Shown piece by piece: positions 2,725 through 58,047 of a DNA stretch of 64,000 nt; positions within the stretch are counted from its first letter, which is position 1, and every line of letters starts with the position of its first letter. The DNA comes from Candidatus Kapaibacterium sp. Its GTDB lineage: Bacteria > Bacteroidota > Ignavibacteria > Kapaibacteriales > UBA2268. The position numbers and the translations under genes were made by a program. Below the pieces are notes generated by a model, which was given only the letters and a program-made list of their open reading frames with translations, was not told where the DNA came from and did not search any database. Location: contig JBBRAO010000004.1 of the NCBI GenBank assembly GCA_038206725.1, positions 39,580-103,579 of the forward strand. Reading direction: 5' to 3'.

Positions 2725-2875
2725 CTTTTTTTCTTGTTAGTTTTGTAAAAAATATTAAATTAATTAGCGCTATATTCTTATATTTGAGAATTATTTTCGC
2801 CAATTTTAAGAATTTAAAAATAATAAAAAAAGATTAGAAACAAGCAAAATGTATCAATAATTTTAGGTGATTAGT

Positions 2876-31262: not shown

Positions 31263-31356
31263 TTATAATTTTTATATTATTATAATTTTTCAAATTTCTT
31301 GTTGAGTACTCAAAATATTCGTAATTTTGCAGTTGTCAAATAATAAGAAAATACCA

Positions 31357-41994: not shown

Positions 41995-42582
41995 ATGGAT
42001 AAAATAGAATTAAGTATAATAAAAATCGCTACAACGCCATCTGGTAACAATGCTATTGCTCTTACTTTGAAGGAAGTTGATGGAAACAGACGAATCGAGA
42101 TCGTCATCGGCGCGTATGAAGCTCAAGCAATAGCACTCGAGTTGGAAGGTATTACACCCCCCCGCCCGATGCCACACGATTTATTGAAAAATGTTATTGA
42201 TAAATTTGGTGCTACTGTTAGCGAGATTTTTATTAATGATTTGAACGATGGAATTTACTATTCATTAATCATTATTGACGCTATGGGTATTGAAATTGAT
42301 TCCAGACCGAGCGACGCTATAGCATTAGCCGTCCGCTTTGGTTGCCCTATATATATCCGCGAGGATATATTGGAAGAAGCGATGTCGCAATCCAGTCCAA
42401 ATGATGAATTAGAGAACATTGAGGGACACACTAAAACTCAGAGAACCGCACCGGCCGGTTCGAATCCTATTTCGCAAGTTGATAAACTTAATAAGCAATT
42501 AGACAAAGCATTAGAAGATGAAGATTACGAAAAAGCGGCATTAATCCGCGACCAAATAAAAAATATTTTGGATATTTCATAA
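41995..42582 (+). CDS. bifunctional nuclease (BFN/DUF151) domain protein with C-terminal UVR motif
   Basis: AIALTLKEVDGNRRIEIVIGAYEAQAIALELEG...PRPMPHDLL BFN-domain pattern. C-terminal YEKAALIRDQIKNI UvrB/C-like motif. Confidence 0.55.
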   Translation: MDKIELSIIKIATTPSGNNAIALTLKEVDGNRRIEIVIGAYEAQAIALELEGITPPRPMPHDLLKNVIDKFGATVSEIFINDLNDGIYYSLIIIDAMGIEIDSRPSDAIALAVRFGCPIYIREDILEEAMSQSSPNDELENIEGHTKTQRTAPAGSNPISQVDKLNKQLDKALEDEDYEKAALIRDQIKNILDIS

Positions 42583-42612
42583 AATAGTCGTAATTTTGAA
42601 TTCTTGTTTTTC

Positions 42613-42686
42613 GCCGGAGTAGCTCAGCTGGTTAGAGCACTGGAATCATAATCCAGGTGTCGGGGGTTCAAATCCCTCCTCCGGTA
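42613..42686 (+). tRNA. tRNA with CAT anticodon (Met elongator or Ile2/lysidine type); CCA not encoded
   Basis: Cloverleaf readable by eye. Acceptor GCCGGAG/CTCCGGT (G1-U72 wobble). U8A9. D-arm GCTC-AGCTGGTTA-GAGC. Anticodon stem CTGGA/TCCAG with loop ATCATAA. Variable GTGTC. T-arm GGGGG-TTCAAAT-CCCTC. Confidence 0.8.
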
Positions 42687-42704
42687 CACCAAAAAAAATA
42701 TCCC

Positions 42705-42738
42705 AAGGTATGATATAAAAATCATACCTTTTTTTTAT
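42705..42738 (+). terminator. rho-independent terminator after tRNA
   Basis: AAGGTATGAT-ataaaa-ATCATACCTT followed by TTTTTTTT. Confidence 0.6.
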
Positions 42739-42749
42739 TTGTTTCCGTA

Positions 42750-42815
42750 TTACTATTAATTTTGAAATGAATGCATTATTTTGTAATTTCGCATATCATT
42801 TATTGAGAAGATGTA
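42750..42815 (+). repeat. conserved intergenic element copy A (about 65 bp; hairpin TCATTTAT-N13-GTAAATGA)
   Basis: ATTTTGAAATGAATGCATTATTTTGTAATTTCGCATATCATTTATTGAGAAGATGTAGGTAAATGA. Near-identical to copy B, related to copy C. Confidence 0.6.
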
Positions 42816-43013
42816 GGTAAATGAGTGCGTGAGTTATGGTCTTTATTAGAAAAAGACGCTAATCGCAGTAAATAACATAGAAAAAAGGTAATTAGAGCAA
42901 CTGATAAAATTATCAATATCGTTTGTTTTTGCTTTCGACCAAAGCGATTTGGAAACAGGATAAATTATGCACACTGATTGTGGGATTTCTAACTTAAAAA
43001 TATAAGAACAATT

Positions 43014-43484
43014 ATGGCTTTTTATCAATTAATTAAAACACAAAAATTACCTGTCTCCATCAACGAGATATGGGATTTTATTTCAGCTCCAGGCAATTTG
43101 AAGGAAATAACACCAAAGCAAATGGGCTTTATTGTAACAAGCAATACTGGTGAAGGCAAAATGTATCCGGGTATGATCATTACTTACAAGGTGAGTCCCT
43201 TGTTTGGTTTAAAACTAAATTGGATGACAGAAATTACTCACGTAAAAGACCTAGAATATTTTGTTGATGAGCAAAGGTTGGGTCCTTACACTATGTGGCA
43301 TCATCAGCATAAAATTGAAAGTATTGAAGGCGGTGTGTTAATGACTGATATTGTTACCTACCAACCACCATTTGGAGTATTGGGTGCAATTGCTAATTCA
43401 CTATTAATTAGAAATAGACTTCAACAAATATTCGATTTCCGAACAGTTGCTTTAGAGAAAAGATTTGGGAAATTTCATTTATGA
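43014..43484 (+). CDS. SRPBCC (START/Bet v1-like, polyketide-cyclase-type) family protein
   Basis: 156 aa. Family commonly paired with a DUF2867-containing NAD(P)-binding protein, as here. No catalytic motif visible. Confidence 0.45.
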   Translation: MAFYQLIKTQKLPVSINEIWDFISAPGNLKEITPKQMGFIVTSNTGEGKMYPGMIITYKVSPLFGLKLNWMTEITHVKDLEYFVDEQRLGPYTMWHHQHKIESIEGGVLMTDIVTYQPPFGVLGAIANSLLIRNRLQQIFDFRTVALEKRFGKFHL

Positions 43485-44911
43485 AAATACTACTAACCGG
43501 TGTAACCGGATATATTGCACAAAGATTATTGCCTATTTTACTGGAAAATGGGCATACGGTTATTTGCTGTGTAAGAGATAAAAATAGGTTTAATAGCAAA
43601 AAATATTTGACTGCAAATCTAACCCTTATAGAGACAGATTTCCTAAAAAAGGAAAGTTTACAGCATATTCCAAATGATATTGACGTAGCATTTTACCTCA
43701 TACATTCTATGTCAACGCAAAGCGGTGACTTTGAAAATATGGAAGAAATATGTGCAACTAATTTTAAAAATCGCATTGCAGAAACAAACGCTAAACAAGT
43801 TATTTACCTTAGCGGTATCAGCAACGCTGACCATTTATCTAAACATTTATCATCACGAAAAAATGTAGAAACTGTTTTGTCAGGTTCCTCTTTTGCACTC
43901 ACCACTTTAAAAGCCGGAATAATAGTAGGTTCGGGAAGTGCTTCATTTGAAATCATTCGCGATTTAGTAGAAAAATTACCTTTTATGATTGCACCTCGTT
44001 GGCTAAAAACAAAATGTCAGCCCATCGCTATTAGTGATGTGGTAGATTTTTTAATTGGCGTAATTGGTAAAACAGAAACATACAATCAAAGTTACGATAT
44101 TGGTGGTCCGGATATATTAAACTATAAGGAAATGCTTTTGCGATTTGCAAAAATACGGGGCTTGAAGAGGCGAATCCTTATTGTACCGGTTATGACACCC
44201 AAAATATCGTCCTATTGGCTATATTTTGTTACTGCTACGTCATTTGCTCTTGCTAAAAATTTGGTAAACAGTATGAAAATCGAAGTGATTTGCAAACCCA
44301 ATGATTTAGCTACACTGCTTGGCATTGAATGTTTAGATTATGACACATCTATAAAAATGGCTTTTGACAAGATAGAACAAAATCAAGTACTTTCAAGTTG
44401 GAAAGATGCACAAACAAGTAATATATTAAGCGAAGGTATTGCCAAATATATTGAAGTGCCTGTTAACGGTTGTTTTAAAGACAGTCGTTCCATTAAACTT
44501 AAAGACAGTACTGCTTCCGTTGAAAAAATATGGGCTATCGGTGGAAAAACTGGCTGGTATTATGGGAACTGGCTTTGGGAAACCCGAGGCATTATAGATC
44601 AGGTTTTGGGAGGTGTTGGTATGCGGAGAGGCCGAAAAAGTGAAACAGAAATAGTTTCAGGTGACGCCCTCGATTTTTGGCGCGTGCTTTTAGCAGATAA
44701 ACAAGAAAAACGCCTGCTACTATATGCCGAAATGAAACTACCCGGCGAAGCTTGGCTGGAATTTAAAATTGACAAAAATGATATCCTATCGCAAACAGCA
44801 ACCTTCAGACCGCTGGGTTTGTTAGGTAGATTGTATTGGTATTCTGTACTTCCGTTACACGGATTAATTTTTAAAGGAATGATACATAAAATAGCTGAAA
44901 CAAAATCATAG
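43481..44911 (+). CDS. NAD(P)-binding Rossmann (NmrA/SDR-like) protein with C-terminal DUF2867-like domain
   Basis: MKILLTGVTGYIAQRLLPILLENGHTV Rossmann motif. 476 aa. 4-nt overlap with the upstream gene. Confidence 0.5.
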   Translation: MKILLTGVTGYIAQRLLPILLENGHTVICCVRDKNRFNSKKYLTANLTLIETDFLKKESLQHIPNDIDVAFYLIHSMSTQSGDFENMEEICATNFKNRIAETNAKQVIYLSGISNADHLSKHLSSRKNVETVLSGSSFALTTLKAGIIVGSGSASFEIIRDLVEKLPFMIAPRWLKTKCQPIAISDVVDFLIGVIGKTETYNQSYDIGGPDILNYKEMLLRFAKIRGLKRRILIVPVMTPKISSYWLYFVTATSFALAKNLVNSMKIEVICKPNDLATLLGIECLDYDTSIKMAFDKIEQNQVLSSWKDAQTSNILSEGIAKYIEVPVNGCFKDSRSIKLKDSTASVEKIWAIGGKTGWYYGNWLWETRGIIDQVLGGVGMRRGRKSETEIVSGDALDFWRVLLADKQEKRLLLYAEMKLPGEAWLEFKIDKNDILSQTATFRPLGLLGRLYWYSVLPLHGLIFKGMIHKIAETKS

Positions 44912-45039
44912 TGCTATCAAACGTCCGGCAATATTTCAGTTCTGCGATTGAATCGGCATTTGTACTTGATTTGCATTTCTTGTACTGAAACAAAACGATT
45001 CTCTTATTTTTGCCGGTTAAAATAAATAGTATCGAATAT

Positions 45040-45105
45040 ATTTTGAAAATCATTCTTTATTTTGTAATTTCGCATATAATTTATTGAGAAGATGTAGATA
45101 AATGA
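45040..45105 (+). repeat. conserved intergenic element copy B
   Basis: ATTTTGAAAATCATTCTTTATTTTGTAATTTCGCATATAATTTATTGAGAAGATGTAGATAAATGA. About 80 nt upstream of the 45187 ORF. Confidence 0.6.
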
Positions 45106-45186
45106 AGAATGGCGACGGAAATTTAAAGAGCATATAAAGAATGGAAACTGAAAAGAAAGACGTAATTCTATTAAACAATTTATTCA

Positions 45187-46314
45187 ATGGAGAATATGTC
45201 AAGGAAAAAATTGGTGGAGAAATTATTAATATGTATCAATCTGACAATGATAATTATTATATTTATAAGGTCTGTTGGGAACGGTGTTGTAAAAATAATA
45301 GGAAAAGCTGAAATTGAAGAACAAATCTGCCTTAATGCAATAAAAAAAGTAGGTGAAGGCATTGATGATAACCAAAAAAAATATATTGATGACAACAATA
45401 TAACCTACGGAAATTGCAAAGTTTATGAATTAGGTTCTTGGTCAAATTATTTTGTAACATTCAAGGCTAAAAGAATATATAAAGCTAAAGAAAATATATA
45501 TTTAGCAACAACAGAAAATAAAATAATTCCACAAAATATATATATTTTAAAAGAAACCACGCGTATAAATAATCAGTCTCAAAAACTATACATAGAGGAA
45601 GGTAGCGATAGTTATCGAACATTATTGAAAGTTGTTGAGACTAATTATCTTTGGGAAACAAATACAATAAGCAAAGTAGATACTTCGAAAAAAGATAATA
45701 TTTATAAAAGTTTTCTATCAATAATTAAGAAGGAATATGATGAATTAGTTAATTCAAATTTATTAGCACATTTCCTTGAAACTGACAAAGAATTTTGGTC
45801 TGATTTCGCTACAAAAGTATTAAAAATAGATGATGAATGTGTGATTAATGGCACTCCAAAGATAACTAGAGAATCAATTAGCAACATTGATTTATTCATT
45901 GAAGTTAAACAATTCGTAATCGTAATTGAGAACAAAATAAAATCAGGGATAAATGGCAAAGGAGAAAACGGTTATTCTCAGTTAGAAAAATATATAGATG
46001 AAACGAAAAAGCATCCATTTCTTGAAAACTTAGAGAGAACATTCAAATTTTATCTATTGAGGCCAAATTATAATAATGAAGATTATAAAGAATTCGATAA
46101 AAACGAAGAGTATAAAGTAATTAAATATTCAGAAATTCACGAGATTATTAAAGATCGCGAATCTGAATCAGATTTTTATTTTAATGAATTTAAGAGAGTT
46201 GTAAAAAAACATTCAGCTGAATACGATAACGAATTATTTGAAATAATGGATAAAAGATTTATTGAACAAATAAAAGCAAAAAATAATATAACAATAAACA
46301 AGTGCAACACCTAA
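45187..46314 (+). CDS. hypothetical protein with PD-(D/E)XK nuclease-like core
   Basis: 375 aa, Lys/Asn/Glu-rich. ISNIDLFIEVKQFVIVIENKIKSG...YSQLEKY fits the D...(D/E)xK pattern of restriction-endonuclease-fold proteins. No ATPase motif. N-terminal start uncertain. Confidence 0.35.
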   Translation: MENMSRKKLVEKLLICINLTMIIIIFIRSVGNGVVKIIGKAEIEEQICLNAIKKVGEGIDDNQKKYIDDNNITYGNCKVYELGSWSNYFVTFKAKRIYKAKENIYLATTENKIIPQNIYILKETTRINNQSQKLYIEEGSDSYRTLLKVVETNYLWETNTISKVDTSKKDNIYKSFLSIIKKEYDELVNSNLLAHFLETDKEFWSDFATKVLKIDDECVINGTPKITRESISNIDLFIEVKQFVIVIENKIKSGINGKGENGYSQLEKYIDETKKHPFLENLERTFKFYLLRPNYNNEDYKEFDKNEEYKVIKYSEIHEIIKDRESESDFYFNEFKRVVKKHSAEYDNELFEIMDKRFIEQIKAKNNITINKCNT

Positions 46315-46433
46315 CATCGTGTGAAAAATATTGGGGCTTAGGTGCGTTATTAAAGCCTTCTGCCCCACTTCAACTCTTCTTGTAATCAAAGAAGGTGATT
46401 TAGACAGAGAAAGCAATATGCAAAAATTGCATA

Positions 46434-46667
46434 ATGCACGCACCGCTAACAACGTCTTATAAGCAATCAGAGTTTCAGTATTTTACGAGAATTTTAGCTC
46501 GAAGCAAAATAATAGACCCAGGATTTAGTTTAACAGATGAAGAATATGAAGCTATAAGTAAGCATTTGGCTAATATTTATGAAACTGGCGAATTACAGCG
46601 GCAAACAACTATTTCCATTTTGGAAACAGTTCAGCAGGAAGGAAACCGCTACCCCAAAATCTTGTAA
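46434..46667 (+). CDS. hypothetical small protein (77 aa)
   Basis: ORF only. Lies in a locally GC-richer segment. No motif recognised. Confidence 0.2.
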   Translation: MHAPLTTSYKQSEFQYFTRILARSKIIDPGFSLTDEEYEAISKHLANIYETGELQRQTTISILETVQQEGNRYPKIL

Positions 46668-46714
46668 ACAACATTTATGAACAGAAATCTAAAGAACTAA
46701 CATAAAAAAGAAAT

Positions 46715-47281
46715 ATGGCAAAACAGAAACTTGAAACCGTGAGAGAACTCATTTACTACTCTTATGCAAACTTAGCAATGGCTCATACCGCAGTTGTTAA
46801 GAAACAAGAAAAATATGGACCTTTTAATTTTATGATTAGATCCAAGCTATTCAAGGGTCTTAAAGAAGGAACAATGAATATGCGAACAATTTTTGATGAT
46901 GAAAAAATCAAACTACAAACCGGACAAATATGTAACTACTGTGGTGCGGCGGACAAATTGGCATTAGACCATATATTCCCCCAAAAATATGGTGGATTAG
47001 ATAACGCGGAAAATTTGATTTTTGCTTGTAGAACTTGCAACAGCTCCAAAGGAAAGAAGGACTTAATGGAATGGATGAACTATCGTGGACATTTTTTGCC
47101 ATTAATGATAATAAGACGGTATTTAAAACTAACTTATAACTACTGCAATGACAATGGACTGCTCGATATGAAAATAGAAGAACTAAAAAAAATGGAGCTC
47201 CCATTTAAAATTGAGCTAATACCGACGAGTTACCCAAATCCAAACGAACTGACATTAACAATAAAGGAAAGGCAAAGCTAA
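46715..47281 (+). CDS. HNH endonuclease family protein
   Basis: CNYCGAADKLALDHIFPQKYGGLDNAENLIFACRTCNSSKG: HNH motif with Cys-pairs (CxxC...CxxC) and catalytic His. Confidence 0.7.
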   Translation: MAKQKLETVRELIYYSYANLAMAHTAVVKKQEKYGPFNFMIRSKLFKGLKEGTMNMRTIFDDEKIKLQTGQICNYCGAADKLALDHIFPQKYGGLDNAENLIFACRTCNSSKGKKDLMEWMNYRGHFLPLMIIRRYLKLTYNYCNDNGLLDMKIEELKKMELPFKIELIPTSYPNPNELTLTIKERQS

Positions 47282-47424
47282 TATAAAAAGTTTTTGCAAC
47301 TGGGCAGGCGTGTACTCCCACCCCACCCCTTAATAACCCATATAACCGTTTAAAAAGTTGTTATTTTCCATTTTATGATTAATTTTGTACTAATTAAATT
47401 TATAAAAATAATAGATTAAATTTT

Positions 47425-47994
47425 ATGTTCGGATTGGTTAGAAATATTGATAAAAAAAGCCTCGAAAACGCCTACCGCCTATTTGACTCGGGCGATATAG
47501 ACAGTATCGAAATTGGCACTACCAAAGGTTTATTGCAAATACACAAATATCTCTTCGATGGTCTTTATGCTTTTGCAGGGCAAATACGCACAAAGAACAT
47601 AGCCAAGGGTGGTTTTAGGTTTGCAAACGCCTTGTATTTAAAGGAAGTTTTGGAAAAAGTGGGGCTAATGCCTGAAAACACTTTTGAAGAAATAATTGCC
47701 AAATATGTGGAAATGAATATAGCCCATCCTTTTTTGGAAGGTAATGGCAGAACGATGCGTATTTGGCTCGATATGATAATGAAAAAGAGATTAAGCAAAT
47801 TAGTGAACTGGCAGTTTGCGGATAAAACACCTTACCTGCAGGCGATGGAACGCAGTCCTATTAACGATTTGGAATTACGCACCTTGCTCGATGCTAATTT
47901 AACAGACGACATCAACAACCGAGAAATTATATTTAAAGGCATAGAGCAATCCTATTATTATGAAGGATACGAAAAAGGTAATGATGACGAATAA
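47425..47994 (+). CDS. Fic/DOC family protein (AMPylation-type)
   Basis: Canonical Fic motif [12 protein letters not shown] (HPFx[DE]GNGR) in a 189-aa protein. Confidence 0.75.
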
Positions 47995-48011
47995 GAGGAA
48001 TAATAATATCA

Positions 48012-48908
48012 ATGATTTTGTCTAAAAATTTTAGTCCGCCTGGTTTTGTATCGGAGTTATTGTATAAATCTCTGAAAGCAATCAACTTCTCAGAAAAAGT
48101 TTTCACCAAAATGCTGACCAAACCCGACAGAGGCACAAATCAGCTGGCGGTAAACAAAATAAATAAGAAGTTATCGCTTGTCGAATCTTATATAGACGGA
48201 TTCAGAATAATCACCGTAAGTGGCAAAACATCCTCTAATAAACACATAATTTTTTTGCACGGTGGTGCTTATTTTGCTGAACCGGTAAAAGGTCACAGAC
48301 AATTGGTAGAGCGTTTGGCATTGTCGGGCTTTGTTGTCAGTTTTATCAACTACCCGCTGGCGCCCGAAAACAATGCTGAAATCACTATTGGTTTGGTTGA
48401 AAAGGCATTTAATGAAATTGCGACCCAATATTCCGGTGATGAATTCTTTCTTTTTGGCGATTCTGCCGGAGGTGGGATTGCTCTCTCACTATTGCAGATT
48501 TTGAGAGATAATAACCATCCAAAAATCCCGACAAAAACTGTTCTTGTTTCGCCGTGGCTTGACATATCAATGTCAAATACTGATATTTCGGACTACATCA
48601 ACAAAGACGTACTTTTAAGCTGCTGCGGTTTAATTCAGTGCGGTAAAATTTATGCTCAAGATATTGACTTGAAAGACCCAAAAGTTTCACCTATTTATGG
48701 CAAGCTCGACGGACTATCGCAAATAAAAATATTCGTTAGCGATTATGAGCTTTTCTATCCGGATTGTCAACTATTGAAACAGAAACTGGATTTAGCAACC
48801 GGAAGTAGCGCAACATTAACTATAAAGGAAAAAATGATACACGATTGGATAGTTTTACCAATAAAAGAGCGAAAAGAAACAATTGACGAAATTGTTGAAT
48901 TTTTTTAG
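48012..48908 (+). CDS. alpha/beta hydrolase, esterase/lipase (HSL-like)
   Basis: HGGAYF oxyanion motif and GDSAGG nucleophile elbow. Confidence 0.7.
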   Translation: MILSKNFSPPGFVSELLYKSLKAINFSEKVFTKMLTKPDRGTNQLAVNKINKKLSLVESYIDGFRIITVSGKTSSNKHIIFLHGGAYFAEPVKGHRQLVERLALSGFVVSFINYPLAPENNAEITIGLVEKAFNEIATQYSGDEFFLFGDSAGGGIALSLLQILRDNNHPKIPTKTVLVSPWLDISMSNTDISDYINKDVLLSCCGLIQCGKIYAQDIDLKDPKVSPIYGKLDGLSQIKIFVSDYELFYPDCQLLKQKLDLATGSSATLTIKEKMIHDWIVLPIKERKETIDEIVEFF

Positions 48909-48969
48909 GAAAATCATTCTTTAATTGGTAATTTTGTATATCATTTATTGAGAGTACATAAATAAATGA
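48908..48969 (+). repeat. conserved intergenic element copy C (diverged)
   Basis: GGAAAATCATTCTTTAATTGGTAATTTTGTATATCATTTATTGAGAGTACATAAATAAATGA. Hairpin TCATTTAT-N13-ATAAATGA. 40 nt upstream of the 49010 start. Confidence 0.5.
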
Positions 48970-49009
48970 ATTCTAAGTAATTTTTAAAAATAAACATAAA
49001 TATGCCAAT

Positions 49010-49759
49010 ATGGAAAAATTAAACAAAGTAGCCAAAATAACACTTCTTTTCTGGTTAATGAAAATCGTTGCCACAACGTTAGGAGAGACTTTGGGTGATT
49101 TTATTTCAATGACATTAAATTTAGGTTACGCAATAGGAATTGGAATTACACTTTTATTTTTACTTATTGCGCTGATAACTCAATTATCGCTAAAGAAATA
49201 TATCCCCATTATTTTTTGGCTCGTAATTATCGGAACCACTACATTGGGAACAGAAATTTCGGACTTTATTGACCGAAGTTTGCATTTAGGCTATGCTTGG
49301 GGGAGCTTTATATTGGTTATGTGTCTAATTTTAACATTATCCTTTTGGTATAGAAAATATAAAAACCTTGAAGTATTTCCAATTATTGAGCGGTCAAAAG
49401 AATTTTATTATTGGGTTGCCATTCTATTTTCTAATAGTTTGGGAACGGCATTTGGCGACTTTTTAAGTGACAATATAAGATTAAGTTATTTACAAGGAGC
49501 AATTGTAACAGGTGCAATAATTGTAATTGTTGTCTCGTTGCATTATTTCACAAAAATTAATCATATCCTATTATTTTGGATTGCATTTATATTCACGAGA
49601 CCATTCGGAGCAACTTTTGGTGATTTCCTTACTAAACCAATTGCAAAGGGAGGCTTAGACCTGGGAACATTGCCTGCTTCAATGGTATCCCTTGCTTTAA
49701 TGGCTTTATTAATTTACTTATCAACTAGACAACATAAAAAAACACTATTAAAAGAGTAA
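49010..49759 (+). CDS. DUF347-like four-repeat membrane protein
   Basis: Four internal repeats, each a TM hairpin with conserved Trp and (S/T)xGxxxGDF(I/L). Examples: LLFWLMKIVATTLGETLGDFIS, IIFWLVIIGTTTLGTEISDFID, FYYWVAILFSNSLGTAFGDFLS, LLFWIAFIFTRPFGATFGDFLT. Confidence 0.45.
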   Translation: MEKLNKVAKITLLFWLMKIVATTLGETLGDFISMTLNLGYAIGIGITLLFLLIALITQLSLKKYIPIIFWLVIIGTTTLGTEISDFIDRSLHLGYAWGSFILVMCLILTLSFWYRKYKNLEVFPIIERSKEFYYWVAILFSNSLGTAFGDFLSDNIRLSYLQGAIVTGAIIVIVVSLHYFTKINHILLFWIAFIFTRPFGATFGDFLTKPIAKGGLDLGTLPASMVSLALMALLIYLSTRQHKKTLLKE

Positions 49760-49793
49760 TTAAGTCCATCATAACAACAATTATACGAATCAA

Positions 49794-51053
49794 ATGTTTA
49801 AACTATTAAAAAACATAGATAAGAAAGATTACAAACCTAAACTTGGCGGTTTGGAGATATTCAAATATATAGGTCCAGGGTTATTAGTTACTGTCGGCTT
49901 TATTGACCCGGGAAACTGGGCATCAAACTTAGCCGCCGGCGCGGATTATGGGTATGCGCTATTATGGATGGTTACCCTATCAACTCTGATGCTTATATTA
50001 TTACAGCATAATGTTGCCCATTTAGGAATCGCCACAGGGCTTTGTCTATCAGAAGCTACAGCAATCTATCTTAAACCTCGGTACTCCAATTTTCTTCTTT
50101 CTTCCGCAATGTTAGCTTCAATCTCCACATCACTTGCTGAAATTCTTGGTGGCGCGATTGCTCTTAATATGATGTTCGCCATACCAATTAAAGCCGGAGC
50201 CGTATTAGTTACTGTTTTTGTTATGATTATGCTTTATACTAATTCATACAGGCTAATAGAGAAATGGATTATCGCATTTGTTTCTATCATCGGAATATCA
50301 TTTCTATACGAGCTTTCATTGAGCAGTATTGATTGGAATAGCGCTGTTACCGCTTGGGTTACACCTACATTTCCCAAAGGTTCTATGATTATAATTATGA
50401 GCGTATTAGGTGCTGTAGTAATGCCTCACAATCTGTTTTTACATTCCGAAATCATTCAAAGCCGACAATGGAATTTGAAAGATGAATCTGTTATTAAAAA
50501 ACAATTAAAATATGAATTTCTTGATACTTTATTTTCAATGATGATCGGTTGGGCTATAAATAGCGCGATGATTCTATTAGCGGCGGCAGCTTTTTTCAAG
50601 TCAAAGATAACAGTTTCCGCACTCGATCAAGCTCAAAAGCTATTAGCTCCTTTACTGGGTAGCCATTCCGCATTAGTTTTCGCGGTAGCTCTTTTATTTG
50701 CCGGCATAGCATCCACTATTACTTCAGGAATGGCCGCGGGCAGTATCTTTGCCGGAATGTATAAGGAACCTTACGATATTAAGGATAACCATTCGAGACT
50801 GGGTGTTGGGATCTCTCTCTTGATTGCTTTGGGTATTATATTTTTAATCTCTAATCCATTCCAAGGCTTAATATTATCGCAGATGTTTTTAAGTATTCAA
50901 CTCCCTTTCACTATATTTTTACAGGTTTATTTAACATCTTCTGCCAAGGTAATGGGCAAGTATAAAAATACCCCCCTAACAAAATACACTTTGTTGTTTC
51001 TCGGTGTTCTCGTAACCATATTAAATATAGGTTTATTTATTAGTTTCTTATAG
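49794..51053 (+). CDS. mntH: Nramp family divalent metal (Mn2+/Fe2+) transporter
   Basis: GPGLLVTVGFIDPGNWASNLAAGADYGYALLW (DPGN motif) and MPHNLFLHSEI. 419 aa, 11-12 TM. Confidence 0.8.
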   Translation: MFKLLKNIDKKDYKPKLGGLEIFKYIGPGLLVTVGFIDPGNWASNLAAGADYGYALLWMVTLSTLMLILLQHNVAHLGIATGLCLSEATAIYLKPRYSNFLLSSAMLASISTSLAEILGGAIALNMMFAIPIKAGAVLVTVFVMIMLYTNSYRLIEKWIIAFVSIIGISFLYELSLSSIDWNSAVTAWVTPTFPKGSMIIIMSVLGAVVMPHNLFLHSEIIQSRQWNLKDESVIKKQLKYEFLDTLFSMMIGWAINSAMILLAAAAFFKSKITVSALDQAQKLLAPLLGSHSALVFAVALLFAGIASTITSGMAAGSIFAGMYKEPYDIKDNHSRLGVGISLLIALGIIFLISNPFQGLILSQMFLSIQLPFTIFLQVYLTSSAKVMGKYKNTPLTKYTLLFLGVLVTILNIGLFISFL

Positions 51054-51188
51054 TTATAGCCGTGTATTATTTTATCCTATTTTCTTGTTATTTTAATTAT
51101 ATTTTTAAAATTATTAGGAATATAATAATTATTTATTAATTTTGTGTATATTATTACTACATTTTTTGTTTTTCAATAAAGGTGCTTT

Positions 51189-51641
51189 ATGAAAAAGTTT
51201 TACTTCTTCTTGCTTACTTTAGGAATGATTATTGTATTAGCCTCTTGTAAAGATAATGGTACAAATCCTCCCGCTGACCATTTTGATTTATCGGGTACTT
51301 GGCTCGTAACACGCACAATGGTTACTTCTAACCCTGATTTTCCAAATGGTTATCAAGACCAGCAGTCTTGGACTTTTACAAAAAATGGTGATGGATGCAC
51401 ATTGACTACATCAGCCGGTTCTGTAGCCGGTGAATGGAAAAGCTCAAGTGTTTACAGTCAAGCTCATTGGGTATTCGATATTTCTTGGTATGACCAAACG
51501 TATCAAATATACTCGAGAGTTGTTGTGGAGGTTATCAATAATAGCCCTTTCAAAGGAACTAATGATACATATTACAAAGATCCGAGTACAGGAATTTGGC
51601 TATTGTTAGACTCATTTAGTCTCGCAGGAGTAAAACAATAG
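51189..51641 (+). CDS. hypothetical lipoprotein (lipocalin-like beta-rich)
   Basis: Lipobox LASCKD. AAAGGTG SD. Trp/Tyr-rich beta pattern. Confidence 0.35.
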   Translation: MKKFYFFLLTLGMIIVLASCKDNGTNPPADHFDLSGTWLVTRTMVTSNPDFPNGYQDQQSWTFTKNGDGCTLTTSAGSVAGEWKSSSVYSQAHWVFDISWYDQTYQIYSRVVVEVINNSPFKGTNDTYYKDPSTGIWLLLDSFSLAGVKQ

Positions 51642-51812
51642 AATAATTGATAAACAGACAATAATTCAGTAACCTAAAACGTCTAGTTAACCTTATGCTG
51701 AGCTAAATATTTTATTTTAATGAGTAAATTATGTTATTTTTTAAATTAAAATATATTTAAGATAATTCAAGTCAGAATTTTGTTATTTATAATAAATTAG
51801 CGAGGTCAATAT

Positions 51813-52244
51813 ATGTTCAATCCTTCTCACATCCATCCAATGTTTGTGCATTTCCCTATTGCTTTATTAATGGTAGGTTTTTTAGCAGATACTGCTTTTT
51901 TATTCTTTAAAAAAGAAAAGTGTCTTTCAAAAATCGGATTATATTTACTAACACTTGGAACTTTAGCTGCATTAGCGGCATATTTGTCAGGGAATTTTCT
52001 GACTGCACACCCAACAAGTGGAAGTATTTATCCGGTCTTTGAAAATCACGAATTATTCGCATTACTCACACTATTATCAGCAGTAGTTACTTTAACTCTC
52101 AGGTTGTATGTTGTTATAACTAAAAAAGAAGATGCTAAAATCAAATGGTTGGTTTATGTATTATACGCTATAACAGCAGGTTTTGTTAGTATTACCGGCT
52201 TCCTTGGTGGAAGTATGGTATATGGTTTTATGATATCAATTTAG
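51813..52244 (+). CDS. DUF2231-like membrane protein
   Basis: MFVHFPIALLMVGFLADTAF... 4 TM. Conserved HFP start typical of DUF2231 (from memory). Confidence 0.4.
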   Translation: MFNPSHIHPMFVHFPIALLMVGFLADTAFLFFKKEKCLSKIGLYLLTLGTLAALAAYLSGNFLTAHPTSGSIYPVFENHELFALLTLLSAVVTLTLRLYVVITKKEDAKIKWLVYVLYAITAGFVSITGFLGGSMVYGFMISI

Positions 52245-53102: not shown

Positions 53103-54305
53103 GTGAGAAATATCAACAAATTATTTACACTACTTGCATTCATTTTGTTTGCAACGAGTTCACTCTTTGCTTATGATAAAGAGATTACCTTAGGTATTGG
53201 CGGTGGTTTAAACCGACCAATAAACGAGACATTTAATGCAGAAAGAGCTAATGGTCCTGCTTTTGGGATTTTTGGTCTTTATGCGAACGGTTTAGGATAC
53301 GGTTTAACCCCCGAGATTAACGTATCCTATTTTATTGAACAATCCAAGACTCTTGGCTACCATACAGAGTATAAAACTAACACTTTGACGGCGGATTTAC
53401 GCTTGAGATATTATCCGATGAATAAGAAGCAATTTGCACCTTATTTATTTGCCGGTGTTGGTATGATAAATTGGAAAGTAAAGACTTTACCGGGTCAAAC
53501 CCCTATTCCATCAGATATGTCAATGGACCAACCCCCTGTGATTGATGGTACAACTGCATACTTCCCTTTGGGAATTGGGTTGACTCATTATTTCACAGAT
53601 ATCATTGGTGTTGATTTAAACCTTGGTTTAAATTTAACTCTAACAGATGATTTAAATCCAGTACACGATGGAATTAATGATGGACATTGGTTAGGTAAAT
53701 TGTCAGTATTGATTCGTTTAGCCGAGATTAAATCCGATGTTGACGGTGATGGTTTAATTGATGAAGAAGAAGCAAGAATTGGTACCGATCCAAACAATCC
53801 AGACACGGACGGTGATGGATTACTTGATGGAAAGGAAGTTTACACTTATAAAACGGATCCTAAAGATAAAGATACCGATGATGGTGGTATTAACGATGGA
53901 GCCGAAGTTCTTCACGGCACTGACCCATTGGATCCTGATGACGATATTCTTTGTATCAATTTAGGTGAAAAAATAATTCTGCGTGGTATCCAATTTGCAA
54001 CAGGAAAAACTGATCTTACTCCTACTTCTGAAAGAACATTAGGTTTTGCCTTAAAGGCTTTGCAAACTGGAGATAATATCGAGCTTCAAATTGTTGGTCA
54101 TACTGATGATATTGGAACTATAGAATTCAATTTGGTTTTATCACAAGATAGAGCTGATGTTGTTAAAAATTGGCTTGTAACTCGAGGTGTTGATCCAGCA
54201 CGTCTGACAACACGAGGCGCAGGATTTAACGAACCTTTGGTGTTAAATAGCGACGATGCTAATCGCGCTATCAACCGTAGAGTAGAATTTACAAGAACTA
54301 AATAA
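53103..54305 (+). CDS. OmpA-family outer membrane protein paralog 1 (beta-barrel + thrombospondin type-3 repeats + OmpA C-domain)
   Basis: GTG start with AAGAGGT SD. Signal peptide. Aromatic-rich barrel region. DGDGLIDEEEARIGTDPNNPDTDGDGLLDGKEVYTYKTDPKDKDTDDGGINDG Ca-binding repeats. OmpA-like C-terminus (LRGIQFATGKTDL...IVGHTDDIG...LSQDRADVV...RRVEF). Confidence 0.75.
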   Translation: MRNINKLFTLLAFILFATSSLFAYDKEITLGIGGGLNRPINETFNAERANGPAFGIFGLYANGLGYGLTPEINVSYFIEQSKTLGYHTEYKTNTLTADLRLRYYPMNKKQFAPYLFAGVGMINWKVKTLPGQTPIPSDMSMDQPPVIDGTTAYFPLGIGLTHYFTDIIGVDLNLGLNLTLTDDLNPVHDGINDGHWLGKLSVLIRLAEIKSDVDGDGLIDEEEARIGTDPNNPDTDGDGLLDGKEVYTYKTDPKDKDTDDGGINDGAEVLHGTDPLDPDDDILCINLGEKIILRGIQFATGKTDLTPTSERTLGFALKALQTGDNIELQIVGHTDDIGTIEFNLVLSQDRADVVKNWLVTRGVDPARLTTRGAGFNEPLVLNSDDANRAINRRVEFTRTK

Positions 54306-54315
54306 TTATTGCTTG

Positions 54316-54346
54316 AACGGTAGAATAGTATTCTGCCGTTTTTTAT
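54316..54346 (+). terminator. rho-independent terminator
   Basis: AACGGTAGAATA-g-TATTCTGCCGTT + TTTTT. Confidence 0.55.
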
Positions 54347-54432
54347 TTAAAAACTTTTACAATACTAATTTATTATTATTTATTAAAATAATTTTTTTTA
54401 GAATTTAATTATCATTTAAAAAGAGGTTTATT

Positions 54433-55539
54433 ATGAAAACTTTTCAAAAGTTATTCATTATTATTGCCATTATTGGCAGTACATCGGCTACAGCCTATTC
54501 TTATGAAAAAGACATCTGTATCGGTGTTGGAGCAGGCTTAAATTCATTCACTTATACTGATTATTTTGACCAAACTCATGATTATGCGGGTAGTCTCGGC
54601 AGTATTTTTGCAATTTACAGCAATGGTATTGCCAACGGATTCACTCCGGAAGTCTCATTTACTACACACTTCGACGAATCTTACAATGCAGGGGTTTTCT
54701 ACAATACTTATGCCATTGAAGGCAAAGTTCGTTATTATCCTTGGAGTCAAAAAAAATTAGCACCCTATGCCGTTGCCGGTTTAGGTTATTATATTTGGGA
54801 TACTCATTTTGCAAGTGCTAAAAAAGTATATATACCTTTAGGTATTGGTATCACTCACTTTTTTACACCCGTCTTCGGTGCTGATTTGAACTTTGCTTAT
54901 AATGTTGCCGATCCTAGTCTGTTGGTAAGTAAGTTATCGTTATTATTTAGAGTTGCTAGTTTCGCTAAAGACACCGACGGTGATGGACTCTCCGATGAAG
55001 ATGAAGTAAAATACGGTACTAATCCGAACAAACCTGATACCGATAATGACGGTTTGCTTGATGGAAAAGAAGTTCACAGATATAAAACTGACCCGAAAAA
55101 TAGAGACACTGATGATGGTGGTATTAGTGACGGAGTTGAGGTAAAATACGGTACTGATCCATTAGATCCTGATGACGATATCTTATGTATCGCTCTTGGT
55201 GAGAAAATTTTAGTCCGCAATATGTTGTTCGAGACCGGAAAAAGTACCCTAAGTACAAGTTCGGAAAGGACATTAGGATTTACTTTAAAAGCAATGCAAT
55301 CGAAAGATAATATTGAACTTCAAATTGTTGGTAATACCGATAATGTTGGAACTCAAGAGTTCAATCAACAATTATCTCAAGATAGAGCCGATGCCGTTAA
55401 AAAATGGTTAGTATCTCGAGGTATTGAATCAGGACGTCTTACAACACGTGGTGCAAGCTTTAATGAACCTATCGTTTCAAATACCAGTGATGAAAATCGC
55501 CAAAGAAATCGTAGAGTAGAAATCTATAGAACTAAATAG
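54433..55539 (+). CDS. OmpA-family outer membrane protein paralog 2
   Basis: Same architecture. AAGAGGT SD. DTDGDGLSDEDEVKYGTNPNKPDTDNDGLLDGKEVHRYKTDPKNRDTDDGGISDG. OmpA C-domain. Confidence 0.75.
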   Translation: MKTFQKLFIIIAIIGSTSATAYSYEKDICIGVGAGLNSFTYTDYFDQTHDYAGSLGSIFAIYSNGIANGFTPEVSFTTHFDESYNAGVFYNTYAIEGKVRYYPWSQKKLAPYAVAGLGYYIWDTHFASAKKVYIPLGIGITHFFTPVFGADLNFAYNVADPSLLVSKLSLLFRVASFAKDTDGDGLSDEDEVKYGTNPNKPDTDNDGLLDGKEVHRYKTDPKNRDTDDGGISDGVEVKYGTDPLDPDDDILCIALGEKILVRNMLFETGKSTLSTSSERTLGFTLKAMQSKDNIELQIVGNTDNVGTQEFNQQLSQDRADAVKKWLVSRGIESGRLTTRGASFNEPIVSNTSDENRQRNRRVEIYRTK

Positions 55540-55562
55540 ATTTGCACGCTAAGAATAAATTT

Positions 55563-55595
55563 AAGGTAGGAATGAAAATTCTTACCTTTTTTTTG
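55563..55595 (+). terminator. rho-independent terminator
   Basis: AAGGTAGGAAT-gaaa-ATTCTTACCTT + TTTTTT. Confidence 0.55.
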
Positions 55596-55716
55596 GTTAT
55601 ATTAAAAAATAATATTATTTTAGTTAAAGTTTTATTTGCTAAAATTTTTATGAAATTACATTAATATTTCAAAAAATTGTTTTTTAATATATTTTTAATT
55701 TTTTCTGAGGTTTTTT

Positions 55717-56808
55717 ATGAAGAGTATTCACAAATTATTAATCATTTTGGCCGTTTTCGGCTTTACAAGCACAATTGCTTATTCCTACGAGAAGGACGTA
55801 TGTATTGGCGTAGGACTGGGTTCTTATTCACAGCAATATAATTATATGGGATATGATTATGTATATTCAGGCGGTCTTGGCAGTATTTTTGGTATTTTCA
55901 CCAATGGGTTTGGAAAAGGTATTACTCCCGAAATTTGCTTTAATACTTATGTTGATGGTGACTATAGTTCATATAGTGCTGATTTCAAAGTTCGCTATTA
56001 TCCTTGGGCACAAAAGAAGTTAGCTCCTTATGGCTTTGTTGGTGCCGGCTATTACAGTTATGATCCTTATTACTCAACAGCAAAACCATTATTTATACCT
56101 ATTGGTATTGGTATTACCCATTTTTTCACACCTGTATTTGGCTTGGATTTTAATCTTGGGTATAATATTTCAAATGATAATGTGACTGTTGGGAAGTTAT
56201 CGGCTCTAATTAGATTAGCAAGTTGGGGTGGTGACCCTGATTCTGATGGTGACGGTCTTTCCGATGCGGACGAAGCAAAATATGGCACTGACCGAAATAA
56301 TCCCGATACAGATAATGATGGATTGTTGGACGGTAAGGAAGTCCATAAATACAAAACGAATCCCAAAGACAAAGATACTGATAAAGGAGGCATTTCGGAC
56401 GGTGTAGAAGTAAATAGAGGATCCGATCCGTTAGACAAAGATGATGATATCCTAAGTATCAATATTGGAGACAAGCTTATATTACGAGGCATTGAATTCG
56501 ATACGGGAAAAGCGGATATTACAGACCGGTCGGAACGTATTTTGGGATTCGCATTAAAAGCTTTGAAATCCGCTCGTGATATGCAGATTGAAATTTGCGG
56601 TCATACCGATGATGTTGGGTCTCTGCAAACTAATTTGAAATTATCATTGGATAGAGCAAATTCAGTTAAGAAATGGTTTGTCAGTCGCGGAATTGACGGA
56701 AGTAGGTTAAGCACTCGCGGTGCCGGTCCAAATGAGACGATGGTTCCGAACACTAGCGATGAAAATCGCCAGCGCAATCGTAGAGTTGAATTTTACAGGA
56801 CTAAATAA
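55717..56808 (+). CDS. OmpA-family outer membrane protein paralog 3
   Basis: Same architecture. GAGGT SD. DSDGDGLSDADEAKYGTDRNNPDTDNDGLLDGKEVHKYKTNPKDKDTDKGGISDG. OmpA C-domain. Confidence 0.75.
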   Translation: MKSIHKLLIILAVFGFTSTIAYSYEKDVCIGVGLGSYSQQYNYMGYDYVYSGGLGSIFGIFTNGFGKGITPEICFNTYVDGDYSSYSADFKVRYYPWAQKKLAPYGFVGAGYYSYDPYYSTAKPLFIPIGIGITHFFTPVFGLDFNLGYNISNDNVTVGKLSALIRLASWGGDPDSDGDGLSDADEAKYGTDRNNPDTDNDGLLDGKEVHKYKTNPKDKDTDKGGISDGVEVNRGSDPLDKDDDILSINIGDKLILRGIEFDTGKADITDRSERILGFALKALKSARDMQIEICGHTDDVGSLQTNLKLSLDRANSVKKWFVSRGIDGSRLSTRGAGPNETMVPNTSDENRQRNRRVEFYRTK

Positions 56809-56837
56809 AGTAAAGATGAAAAAATCTTTTAATAATT

Positions 56838-56867
56838 GGGTAGAATTATAATTCTACCCTTTTTTAT
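56838..56867 (+). terminator. rho-independent terminator
   Basis: GGGTAGAATTATAATTCTACCC + TTTTTT. Confidence 0.55.
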
Positions 56868-56970
56868 TATAAAAAAAAATATTAACTTGCATTCAATTAT
56901 AAATTAATTTTTCCGAACTACGCTAATAACATCTTAATATAGTTTTATTATTTTCCCATAAGAGGTTTTT

Positions 56971-58047
56971 ATGAAAGTCATATACAAATTATTAATTATT
57001 ATTGCCATATTGGGCTTTACAACAACAATATCACATTCATACGAAAAAGATATTAGTTTGGGTGCAGGACTTGGTAGATTTACGGTTCAGAAGGATGCTG
57101 ATTATAATAAATTCAGTGGTGGCTTAATAAATTTTTATGCTATCGGTACAAATATTTTTGGAAAGGGATATACACCTGAAATTGGTGTTTCTACTCTTTT
57201 TAACACAAACGGTGATTATTTGAATTCAATCGATGCTAAATTACGTTACTATCCTTGGACTCACAAAAAGTTTGCGCTTTATGGATTTATTGGTTTAGGA
57301 TATTATACTGATACTACTGATATTGTCACACCTATTTATTTACCGGTAGGTGTTGGTTTAACCCACTTCTTCACAGAAAAAGTCGGTGCAGATTTAAGTG
57401 TAGGTTACAATGTATCATCACCAATCATTTTGGTGGCTAAATTATCGGTATTATTCAGAGTACTAAGTTTTACGAAAGACTCTGACAAAGATGGTTTATC
57501 TGATGCTGATGAGTCTAAATATGGTACTGACCCAAACAATCCAGATTCCGACGGCGATGGATTGTTAGACGGTAAAGAAGTCAATAAATACAAAACTGAT
57601 CCAAAGAATAAGGATACCGACGGCGGGGGAATTAATGATGGTACCGAAGTGAATAGAAATTCCGATCCGTTAGATATGGATGATGATATTTTAAGTATCA
57701 ACATTGGTGATAAATTAATATTACGCGGTATTGAATTTGATTTGGGCAAAACTGACATTACTCCACGTTCTGAGAGAATTTTGGGATTCGCATATAAAGC
57801 CTTAGAAGCCGGTGAAAATATGGAAATCGAAATTTGCGGACATACAGATGACATTGGAAAGGTTTCAGATAATGATAAACTGTCGTTAGAGAGAGCTGAT
57901 GCTGTGAAGAAATGGTTTGTCAGTCGCGGAATTGACGGAAGTAGGTTAAGCACTCGCGGTGCCGGTCCAAATGAGCCTATGGTAACAAATACCAGCGACG
58001 AAAATCGTCAACGCAACCGTAGAGTAGAATTCTATAGGACAAGGTAA
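56971..58047 (+). CDS. OmpA-family outer membrane protein paralog 4
   Basis: Same architecture. AAGAGGT SD. DSDKDGLSDADESKYGTDPNNPDSDGDGLLDGKEVNKYKTDPKNKDTDGGGINDG. OmpA C-domain. Confidence 0.75.
   Translation: MKVIYKLLIIIAILGFTTTISHSYEKDISLGAGLGRFTVQKDADYNKFSGGLINFYAIGTNIFGKGYTPEIGVSTLFNTNGDYLNSIDAKLRYYPWTHKKFALYGFIGLGYYTDTTDIVTPIYLPVGVGLTHFFTEKVGADLSVGYNVSSPIILVAKLSVLFRVLSFTKDSDKDGLSDADESKYGTDPNNPDSDGDGLLDGKEVNKYKTDPKNKDTDGGGINDGTEVNRNSDPLDMDDDILSINIGDKLILRGIEFDLGKTDITPRSERILGFAYKALEAGENMEIEICGHTDDIGKVSDNDKLSLERADAVKKWFVSRGIDGSRLSTRGAGPNEPMVTNTSDENRQRNRRVEFYRTR

Follow-up and report, generated by a model that had tools for sequence, protein, structure and literature searches.

We examined a 64,000-nucleotide stretch of the genome of Candidatus Kapaibacterium sp. 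(assembly GCA_038206725.1, contig JBBRAO010000004.1, positions 39,580 to 103,579 of the forward strand), hereafter the window, in which an intergenic element of about 66 nt occurs in 3 copies, here called A, B, and C. The genome has a GC content of 33% and contains type IX secretion system (T9SS) sorting domains, in keeping with its place in the Bacteroidota/Ignavibacteria/Kapaibacteria group. All 3 copies lie in an islet behind a tRNA-Met gene and its terminator, and each copy heads one of 3 co-oriented gene blocks, which we refer to as cassettes A to C (Table 1). The distance from the 3' end of the element to the next ATG codon is 190 nt for copy A, 82 to 91 nt for copy B, and 41 nt for copy C.

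Table 1. Features of the islet and of the 3 element copies (window coordinates; promoter boxes are predictions)
Feature	Position	Strand	Description	Basis
tRNA-Met (CAT)	42613..42687	+	Left neighbor of the islet	ARAGORN; Rfam tRNA, 68 bits
Intrinsic terminator	42705..42730	+	Hairpin and T-run behind tRNA-Met	Terminator scan; comparison with L054
Whole islet	42740..51077	+	About 8.4 kb; both edges uncertain by tens of nt	Absent from sister species
Element copy A	42759-42824	+	Reference for identities	Direct-repeat search, family D4
Copy A boxes	-33 TTG 42762-42764; -7 box 42784-42791	+	19-nt spacer; -7 box TAATTTCG	Sequence
Copy A hairpin	Arms 42796-42803, 42817-42824; loop 42804-42816	+	Loop TGAGAAGATGTAG	Sequence
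Cassette A	43014..44911	+	156-aa protein without family match; 476-aa SDR/NmrA-DUF2867 protein	Pfam
Element copy B	45040-45105	+	89% identity to A over 66 nt	Direct-repeat search, family D4
Copy B boxes	-33 TTG 45043-45045; -7 box 45065-45072	+	19-nt spacer; -7 box TAATTTCG	Sequence
Copy B hairpin	Arms 45077-45084, 45098-45105	+	Loop like copy A	Sequence
Cassette B	45187..48908	+	5 genes, several phage-defense candidates	Pfam, PADLOC
Element copy C	48904-48969	+	73% identity to A over 66 nt	Direct-repeat search, family D4
Copy C boxes	-7 box 48929-48936	+	-7 box TAATTTTG; -33 position reads AGG	Sequence
Copy C hairpin	Arms 48941-48948, 48962-48969	+	Type-2 loop GAGAGTACATAAAT	Sequence
Cassette C	49010..51053	+	DUF347 membrane protein (249 aa); Nramp/MntH-type transporter (419 aa)	Pfam

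The 3 plus-strand copies described in the initial annotation were recovered by direct reading, alignment and repeat search; the positions given there for copies B and C were right, whereas copy A had been placed 9 nt too low, at 42750-42815. A 26-nt core, GTAATTTCGCATATCATTTATTGAGA, has 3 matches in the window at no more than 2 mismatches, compared with 0 in 100 dinucleotide-preserving shuffles, and a profile hidden Markov model (HMM) of the family found no fourth copy in the 64 kb (next best E=4.7), in agreement with the claim that the element is confined to these 3 places. The inverted repeat TCATTTAT-N13-ATAAATGA is also present as described, including the T.G pair at the innermost position of the arms in copy A and, one pair in from the outer end of the stem of copy B, an A.G mismatch, which corresponds to the outer irregularity noted earlier. 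Copy B is a mosaic in the alignment, with a spacer, AAAATCATTCTTTA, that is identical to that of copy C over 14 nt, and a -7 box and loop like those of copy A, which suggests recombination or gene conversion among the resident copies.

The housekeeping promoter of the Bacteroidota group reads TTG-N17-23-TAnnTTTG. In flavobacteria, mapped promoters have the -7 box at positions -12 to -5 (PMC9723704), and a promoter of this kind is also found in green sulfur bacteria (10.1101/172254). By comparison with this consensus, the 5' half of the element is predicted to be a sigma-A promoter with a -33 TTG, a spacer of 19 to 20 nt and a -7 box, the latter of which fits TAnnTTTG at 8 of 8 positions in copy C and at 7 of 8 in copies A and B. 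The -33 position of copy C reads AGG because the stop codon of the upstream hydrolase gene (48906-48908) overlaps with it. Transcription would accordingly be predicted from the consensus to start at about 42795-42796 (A), 45077 (B), and 48941 (C). With the -7 box at -12 to -5, the predicted start is the first base of the 5' arm of the hairpin, so that the transcript would open with the conserved 3' half as its first 30 nt or so. In all 23 family copies examined (see below), a -7 box (TAATTTTG, TATGTTAG, TATTTTTG, TAAATTTG and similar) stands in the same register to the hairpin, and most relatives contain a TTG 19 to 20 nt upstream of it. The spacer between the boxes differs by lineage, whereas the boxes and the putatively transcribed part are common to the lineages, as would be expected if selection upstream retained promoter function. 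Of the promoter/operator option raised initially, the promoter part is thus favored by boxes at a fixed distance from the hairpin, while the palindromic operator is weighed below as a rival.

The tRNA-Met gene of the window is itself preceded by TTTTG-N20-TAATTTTG at about 42566-42598, an internal example of the promoter type of this organism. TAnnTTTG is twice as dense in intergenic as in coding DNA, and a scan for sigma-70 promoters gave 28 sites against 29.6 expected, that is, no enrichment, as expected for the phylum Bacteroidota. It was also noted that 2 similar 38-nt sequences, at 42561-42598 and 31292-31329 (repeat D14), both end in ..TCGTAATTTTG. Upstream of the gene for a 150-aa protein, at 51137-51165, the sequence TAATTTTGTGTATATTATTAC loosely resembles the core of the element, with a -7 box followed by TATAT; the likeness was not significant by HMM, and this is probably just the native promoter of that gene.

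The 3' half of the element, ATCATTTATTGAGA..ATAAATGA, is an 8-bp stem-loop that begins at the predicted +1 position. The family contains 2 types of loops, GAGAAGATGTAGRT as in copies A and B and GAGAGTWCRTARAT as in copy C. The stability of the 3 window hairpins is not unusual, with RNA fold z scores of -1.3, -0.9, and +0.1, and the single-stranded DNA (ssDNA) folds of the window copies and of the longer conserved unit were not significant. In the alignment of 23 copies, 95% of the cells in the hairpin arms pair, but compensatory pairs numbered 0 and covariation scored the same as in shuffles, so that the covariance analysis proposed in the initial annotation gave nothing beyond chance. One-sided arm changes leave a sense-strand U.G pair in 17 cases and abolish pairing in 9, which leans weakly towards RNA, given that many of them were inherited jointly. 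The TTGAG of the loop does not vary, not even where diverged copies have lost the 3' arm, which points to sequence-specific recognition by a protein rather than to a mere structural cap. Rfam searches gave no matches at the gathering score on 20 related loci and, at E<=10, only the tRNA in the window region 42000-52000. The earlier suggestion of an RNA element in the 5' untranslated region (UTR) agrees with the location of the hairpin at the predicted +1, but not with the lack of compensatory changes and of an Rfam match.

Two other candidates for the function of this sequence were rejected. A leader peptide was considered in the form of a 5-codon TTG..TAA mini-ORF that crosses the loop, but in the family alignment all 3 codon positions vary, the copy L004b has no in-register stop codon and reads on, and 2 other copies end one codon early. 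A dif/Xer-like site was considered for ATTTCGCATAT, which resembles a XerC arm, and was dropped as the second arm misfits and the match coincides with the -7 box.

The family was collected by scanning species-representative genomes for the core and metagenomes for a looser pattern, and then by an HMM search. The core scan recovered one Ca. Kapaibacterium MAG (metagenome-assembled genome) and 2 probably mis-binned MAG contigs, and after the metagenome scan and HMM search the family comprised about 25 metagenomic or MAG places in Kapaibacteria/Ignavibacteria-like bacteria. Every family copy is located 40 to 350 nt upstream of an open reading frame (ORF) on the same strand. Several contigs hold 2 to 3 copies, tandem arrays occur, and near-identical 45-nt cores were found in unrelated contexts of other genomes. 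The mean pairwise identity among 17 copies from distinct contexts was 0.54 at positions -40 to -31, 0.65 at -10 to -1 and 0.8 to 0.96 at 0 to +29, compared with a background of 0.29, to which it returned from +40. The upstream -33 and -7 boxes were not fixed by the search pattern. In the Kapaibacterium-type copies, a conserved terminator hairpin (CCCAATAT..ATGTTGGG and a T-run) directly precedes the -33 box, which gives the order terminator, promoter, leader.

The 2 contigs with conflicting labels, L002 (JBAYPP010000094.1, 'Acholeplasmataceae' MAG) and L004 (CAZIIZ010000022.1, 'Hyphomicrobiales' MAG), are short, have a GC content of 31% to 34%, and contain a Kapaibacteria-type element and Bacteroidota-style promoters. 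L002 also duplicates a contig found in other metagenomes (L032/L070), and both are probably mis-binned. An origin of the element from phages or plasmids was rejected, as an exact-pattern scan of viral contigs gave 0 matches and a blastn search with copy C gave no match in plasmids.

The islet is missing in a sister species, in which the Obg protein and the bifunctional nuclease (BFN) are 91% and 92% identical to those of the window. The gene order in the sister species matches that on both sides of the islet in the window and is ETF-ETF-BFN-tRNA-Met, directly followed by the genes for the 150-aa protein, DUF2231, rubrerythrin and 4 OmpA proteins. There, tRNA-Met and its terminator are separated by only about 130 nt from the gene for the 150-aa protein, which is located at 51189 in the window. 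Sequence clearly shared with the sister species (L054) extends as far as the terminator, clear homology stops at about 42739, and no element was found in 35 kb of sister-species contigs. An origin of copies A and B from the ancestral promoter of the 150-aa gene was also considered, and the sister-species alignment looked significant against mononucleotide shuffles; this origin was rejected as unsupported because other AT-rich intergenic 110-nt segments of the 64 kb score as high.

Within the islet, cassette B encodes a PD-(D/E)XK_4 protein (375 aa), a 77-aa helix-turn-helix (HTH) protein that matches PDC-S05 in PADLOC, an HNH protein (188 aa, PtuB/PDC-M01B-like), a Fic protein (189 aa) that matches the PADLOC candidate PDC-S04 at 1e-90, and, as the last gene, an alpha/beta hydrolase (298 aa). 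No PADLOC matches were obtained in cassette A. We noted that the segment 45000-46500, with the PD-(D/E)XK_4 gene that opens cassette B, has the lowest GC content of the region, 26% to 28% compared with about 33%, and a strong positive GC and AT skew, consistent with a foreign origin. The DUF347 protein of cassette C is 81% to 84% identical to proteins of Flavobacterium and other Bacteroidota. By comparison, the Obg housekeeping protein is only about 60% to 66% identical to anything beyond the sister species; its best named relatives, at about 60% to 62%, belong to Ignavibacteria, Kapaibacterium, and Bacteroidetes MAGs. We conclude from this difference that cassette C arrived by horizontal transfer. 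Two DUF347 homologs in other Bacteroidota (homologs checked, 80% to 84% identical) have loci that do not contain the element, which was thus not imported with DUF347 from such donors and, we conclude, was supplied by the recipient lineage. On the evidence of the same 2 loci, a role of the element as a conserved regulator of DUF347/Nramp was rejected. We regard the segment from 42.74 to 51.08 kb as an acquired islet of 3 units, each with its own predicted promoter.

The element stands in constant orientation and position before a variable cargo in the related loci. The genes behind it encode Gabija GajA and GajB (1.5e-178 and 2.3e-137 in PADLOC), a CBASS cyclase (2.5e-135 in PADLOC), an N6_N4 methylase with R.HinP1I, an MmeI-like enzyme, GmrSD, RhuM, TIR and NucS-like proteins, a C5 methylase with BsoBI, pirin, lipocalin and, in L034, orphan Rhs-type toxin tips and small ORFs. 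Comparisons between closely similar loci revealed presence/absence polymorphisms at these sites. L008 contains a TIR cassette that is missing from L027 and L009 at the same place. In L067, positions 1232-4334 encode Gabija, whereas the same chromosomal site in L028 (11094-11612) contains a gene for a 172-aa membrane protein; the flanks are 99.8% identical, with a MarR-like gene on one side and genes for a response regulator, CsrA and FliW on the other. Exchange in this pair took place at a separate attC-like end, some 150 nt downstream of the element. Between L032 and L033, the element and more than 230 nt before it are identical, and the sequences are unrelated immediately past ...AAATGAGTTA; in these and others, unrelated DNA begins right behind the hairpin-GTTA. 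More generally, conservation stops at ...AAATGA, which in most type-2 copies is followed by GTT(A/G) and then by unrelated DNA. The motif GTTA(A/G)CGGTAATTATA marks the start of a cassette both behind the hairpin in L033 and behind an attC-like R' end in L027, and no GTT follows the hairpin in window copies B and C. The suggestion in the initial annotation that the element marks cassette boundaries, and would then co-occur with variable genes, is supported by these differences in gene content between otherwise identical loci and by the missing block in the sister species.

In one related lineage (L008, L027, L028, and L067), the cassettes are separated by repeats of about 125 nt that start with TAAC and end with GTTA, of the form TAAC-AGCAGCTACAAGAA...TTCTTGTAGCTGC-AAAAC-GTTA. 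In L027 (1-7813, Ga0163148_10011222), 7 co-oriented ORFs are located between such repeats, and 3 of the 7 junctions carry the element, which lies between the repeats or within them. Four of the attC-like repeats were tested for folding as ssDNA, and 2 folded end to end with z scores of about -4 and 0 of 200 shuffles as good, while the other 2 had z scores of -1.1 and +0.5. The cassette for the 172-aa protein starts with G|TTATAG and its own 3' repeat starts with CTATAAC, complementary at 7 of 7 positions, as in the design of integron cassettes. Where strains have fewer cassettes in the array, the attC-like repeats occur without the element. The element at 3 of 7 junctions, and repeats without it elsewhere, indicate that it is an optional insert, with a predicted promoter, in these arrays.

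It was also noted that the array in L027, which occurs as well in L008, L028, L067, and L072-L075, is chromosomal and consists of single-gene cassettes with no integrase in view, and that the number of cassettes between a gene for a 188-aa protein and a Crp-like gene varies from 0 to at least 5 among strains. The array looks like a CALIN-type array (a cluster of attC sites lacking an integrase) in an uncultured lineage of the Bacteroidota group. In L028, positions 11683-11765 contain an 18-nt tandem repeat, CAGTTTTGTGCTGGCAGA, in 3 to 4 copies inside an attC-like site, with a copy number that differs from that in L067. In the window, GTTATAGCC at 51053-51061 on the plus strand overlaps the stop codon of the Nramp gene, within the last 20 nt or so of the islet, and is similar to GTTATAAGCC and GTTACAAGCC, the R'-like ends that the attC-like repeats have in the related arrays; this was observed a posteriori and may be a relic junction or a coincidence.

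Since the same module heads swappable cassettes in related bacteria, its likely role is that of a reusable expression head in an integron-like cassette system rather than of an ordinary gene-specific regulatory site. We suggest that the element is probably a portable promoter/leader module for acquired gene cassettes, analogous to the promoter cassettes of integrons. A sigma-A promoter would be followed by the conserved, initially transcribed ATCATTTATTGAGA...ATAAATGA, which would form the 8-bp stem-loop at the 5' end of the transcript and may stabilize that end or bind a common factor. The 3 copies in the window would drive the 3 accessory blocks behind the terminator of tRNA-Met. The module is distributed over Kapaibacteria/Ignavibacteria-like genomes, at the junctions of swappable cassettes, and the copies may multiply by recombination within a genome, as suggested by the mosaic copy B and the lineage-specific spacers. 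The location of the element inside attC-like arrays in one lineage suggests that it works like gene-less promoter cassettes or like the Pc/attI region of integrons.

Several observations weigh against such a module. The promoter and the start sites were derived entirely from the consensus, which the -7 box of copies A and B (TAATTTCG) matches at 7 of 8 positions, and copy C is without a canonical -33 box. The conservation at profile positions 0 to 14 and 25 to 31 is partly forced by the search pattern, and the invariant TTGAG loop is not accounted for by a simple stabilizer hairpin. The window contains no attC-like repeats, and no recombinase was found in the scanned ORFs of the window or in the related loci with genes examined. 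Finally, the absence of the islet from the sister species could formally represent a deletion there instead of an insertion here.

If the element is a mobile promoter/leader that travels with accessory cassettes or captures them, it shows how an uncultured and little-studied branch of the Bacteroidota group builds and expresses its defense islands and other flexible regions, with Gabija, CBASS, restriction-modification, TIR and Fic systems all placed behind the same 70 bp. The concept of integron promoter cassettes would thereby be widened to include a conserved family of sequences, as well as arrays in which no integrase is seen. The core ATATCATTTATTGAG..TAAnnGA can serve as a search tag for flexible cassettes in metagenomes, and the module is a candidate genetic part, compact and presumably strong, for organisms with -33/-7 promoters and no Shine-Dalgarno sites.

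Similarity by chance in AT-rich intergenic DNA, or through the generic promoter architecture of the organism, would suit the 33% GC genome, the generic -33/-7 boxes and the fairly good mutual alignment of AT-rich intergenic regions. Neither of these readings, both named in the initial annotation, was borne out: the core had 3 matches compared with 0 in shuffles, the 64 kb with its approximately 50 genes holds no further copy, and the near-identical 45-nt cores recur in unrelated contexts of other genomes, by which this explanation is refuted and its probability negligible. The hairpin could instead make the element a structured cis-regulatory RNA, such as a riboswitch, a thermometer or a protein-binding leader, that co-regulates the downstream genes post-transcriptionally. 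We consider this quite improbable: although the hairpin belongs to the sense strand and coincides with the predicted start of the transcript, tolerates wobble pairs and has a fixed position in the 5' UTR, it matches no Rfam family, its fold z scores reach only -1.3 to +0.1, its covariation does not exceed that of shuffles, and about 35 nt with a single AU stem precede functionally unrelated cargo. It is also unlikely that the 3' half is primarily a DNA operator, with a dimeric repressor bound to TCATTTAT-N13-ATAAATGA over the start site and the promoter part incidental, which would provide one common switch for all acquired cassettes, for example through a defense-island regulator. The palindrome does span the predicted +1 to +29, a classic roadblock position, and the strong sequence conservation without covariation, including TTGAG, as well as the diverged copies L004b and L007b, which keep the 5' half-site and lose the pairing, would agree with an operator. 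HTH genes are located near some arrays (MarR in L067, Crp-like in L008 and L027, and the 77-aa PDC-S05 protein in cassette B), but none of the regulator genes accompanies the element consistently. Furthermore, the half-site centers are 21 bp apart around a non-palindromic center, and the one-sided substitutions mostly keep a U.G pair that exists on the sense strand only (17 wobble compared with 9 unpaired), which fits RNA better than DNA symmetry.

A further possibility, tentative and of rather low probability, is that the hairpin and the GTT(A/G) behind it are themselves an attI/attC-like site of site-specific recombination. Promoter and capture site would then be a single unit, and bacteria of the Kapaibacteria/Ignavibacteria type would possess an integron-like cassette system coupled to a promoter. 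Circular cassettes would be inserted just downstream of the portable promoter, either by a recombinase with its gene elsewhere or through an unusually short homology-driven exchange. Every unit would be expressed from the moment of its capture, and defense islands would grow by one cassette after another at intergenic sites like the flank of tRNA-Met. The end of conservation at ...AAATGA with GTT(A/G) next in most type-2 copies, the cassette-start motif shared by the hairpin of L033 and the R' end of L027, the tandem copies in several contigs, the C-like and A-like halves of copy B, and the complete integrons reported in Ignavibacteriae and Chlorobi (PMC9024848) would all agree with this. However, copies B and C lack the GTT, the 8-bp stem has no R''/R' pair and no L boxes, the exchange between L067 and L028 occurred at a separate attC-like end, attC-like arrays also occur without the element, and no recombinase gene was found among the window ORFs scanned or in the related loci with genes examined.

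Several known systems served for comparison. The window copies were tested against the attC criteria, R'' (RYYYAAC) and R' (GTTRRRY) ends, L''/L' boxes and a long imperfect hairpin of 57 to 141 nt, and showed only a single 8-bp stem, no AAC...GTT pair and no significant ssDNA fold; only in the related loci did the TAAC...GTTA repeats of about 125 nt loosely correspond to attC sites. An integron is defined by an adjacent IntI tyrosine recombinase if complete, or by at least 2 attC sites if of the CALIN type, and the window contained neither, with no Phage_integrase or other recombinase among 40 scanned ORFs, including every ORF in and around the islet. The insertion is located behind the terminator of the tRNA, with no integrase and no tRNA-end repeat reported among the direct repeats of the window, and is thus not that of a tRNA-targeting island. 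Miniature inverted-repeat transposable elements (MITEs) and repetitive extragenic palindromes (REPs) are characterized by terminal inverted repeats, target-site duplications and many dispersed copies that occur in both orientations, unlike the family copies, which are all in gene orientation; the 3 copies in 64 kb are also confined to one 6-kb stretch and have no terminal inverted repeats.

Gene-less promoter cassettes have been demonstrated experimentally in Vibrio superintegrons, which are sedentary chromosomal integrons (PMC11014356), and ORF-less cassettes are known from oral metagenomes (PMC6557892). Like these, the element is a short non-coding unit among co-oriented accessory cassettes with a (predicted) sense-strand promoter, but it differs in being one conserved sequence family across lineages, with a fixed 5' hairpin and a putative Bacteroidota -33/-7 promoter. 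It also differs in occurring outside attC-like arrays, as in the window and in Kapaibacterium defense islands, where some copies stand behind a conserved terminator, and in that no IntI was seen near it. With the Pc promoter and attI site of integrons, the element shares a predicted promoter directly before the point of strain-variable content and a junction that is often G-TT(A/G), although not in copies B and C, but arrays contain several copies of it, with no adjacent integrase, no attI-type direct repeats and no R/L boxes. The integron-like rAID-1 arrays reported in Bacteroidales (10.1101/471110; Ross et al.) likewise consist of acquired genes in members of the Bacteroidota group, and the repeats between their genes have been described as reminiscent of integrons. 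The orphan Rhs-type toxin tips and small ORFs of L034 are a further likeness. As compared by description, rAID-1 is defined by a conserved XerD-family recombinase and immunity-gene cargo, neither of which was found for the element arrays: no recombinase was seen in the window ORFs scanned or the related loci examined, and most of the cargo genes are of kinds other than immunity genes, over a wider range that includes restriction-modification, Gabija, CBASS and transporters.

Leaders with a 5' hairpin or a shared sequence offer 2 more parallels. The leader of ompA in E. coli is a 5'-terminal stem-loop that stabilizes the mRNA and, as a stabilizer, needs no conserved loop sequence; the stem-loop of the element is similarly located about 0 to 1 unpaired nt from the predicted 5' end, but its TTGAG loop is invariant. 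JUMPstart/ops leaders are recognized by RfaH-type NusG paralogs, with the ops elements well downstream of +1, and are similar to the element in being short conserved leaders on unrelated, horizontally acquired operons, but the element shows no sequence similarity to them and no NusG paralog is linked to it.

Downstream of the islet, at 53103-58047, the window contains 4 tandem paralogous genes for OmpA/TSP3-type outer-membrane proteins (repeats D1-D3, with a spacing of about 1.24 kb), and the same 4 genes are present in the sister species.

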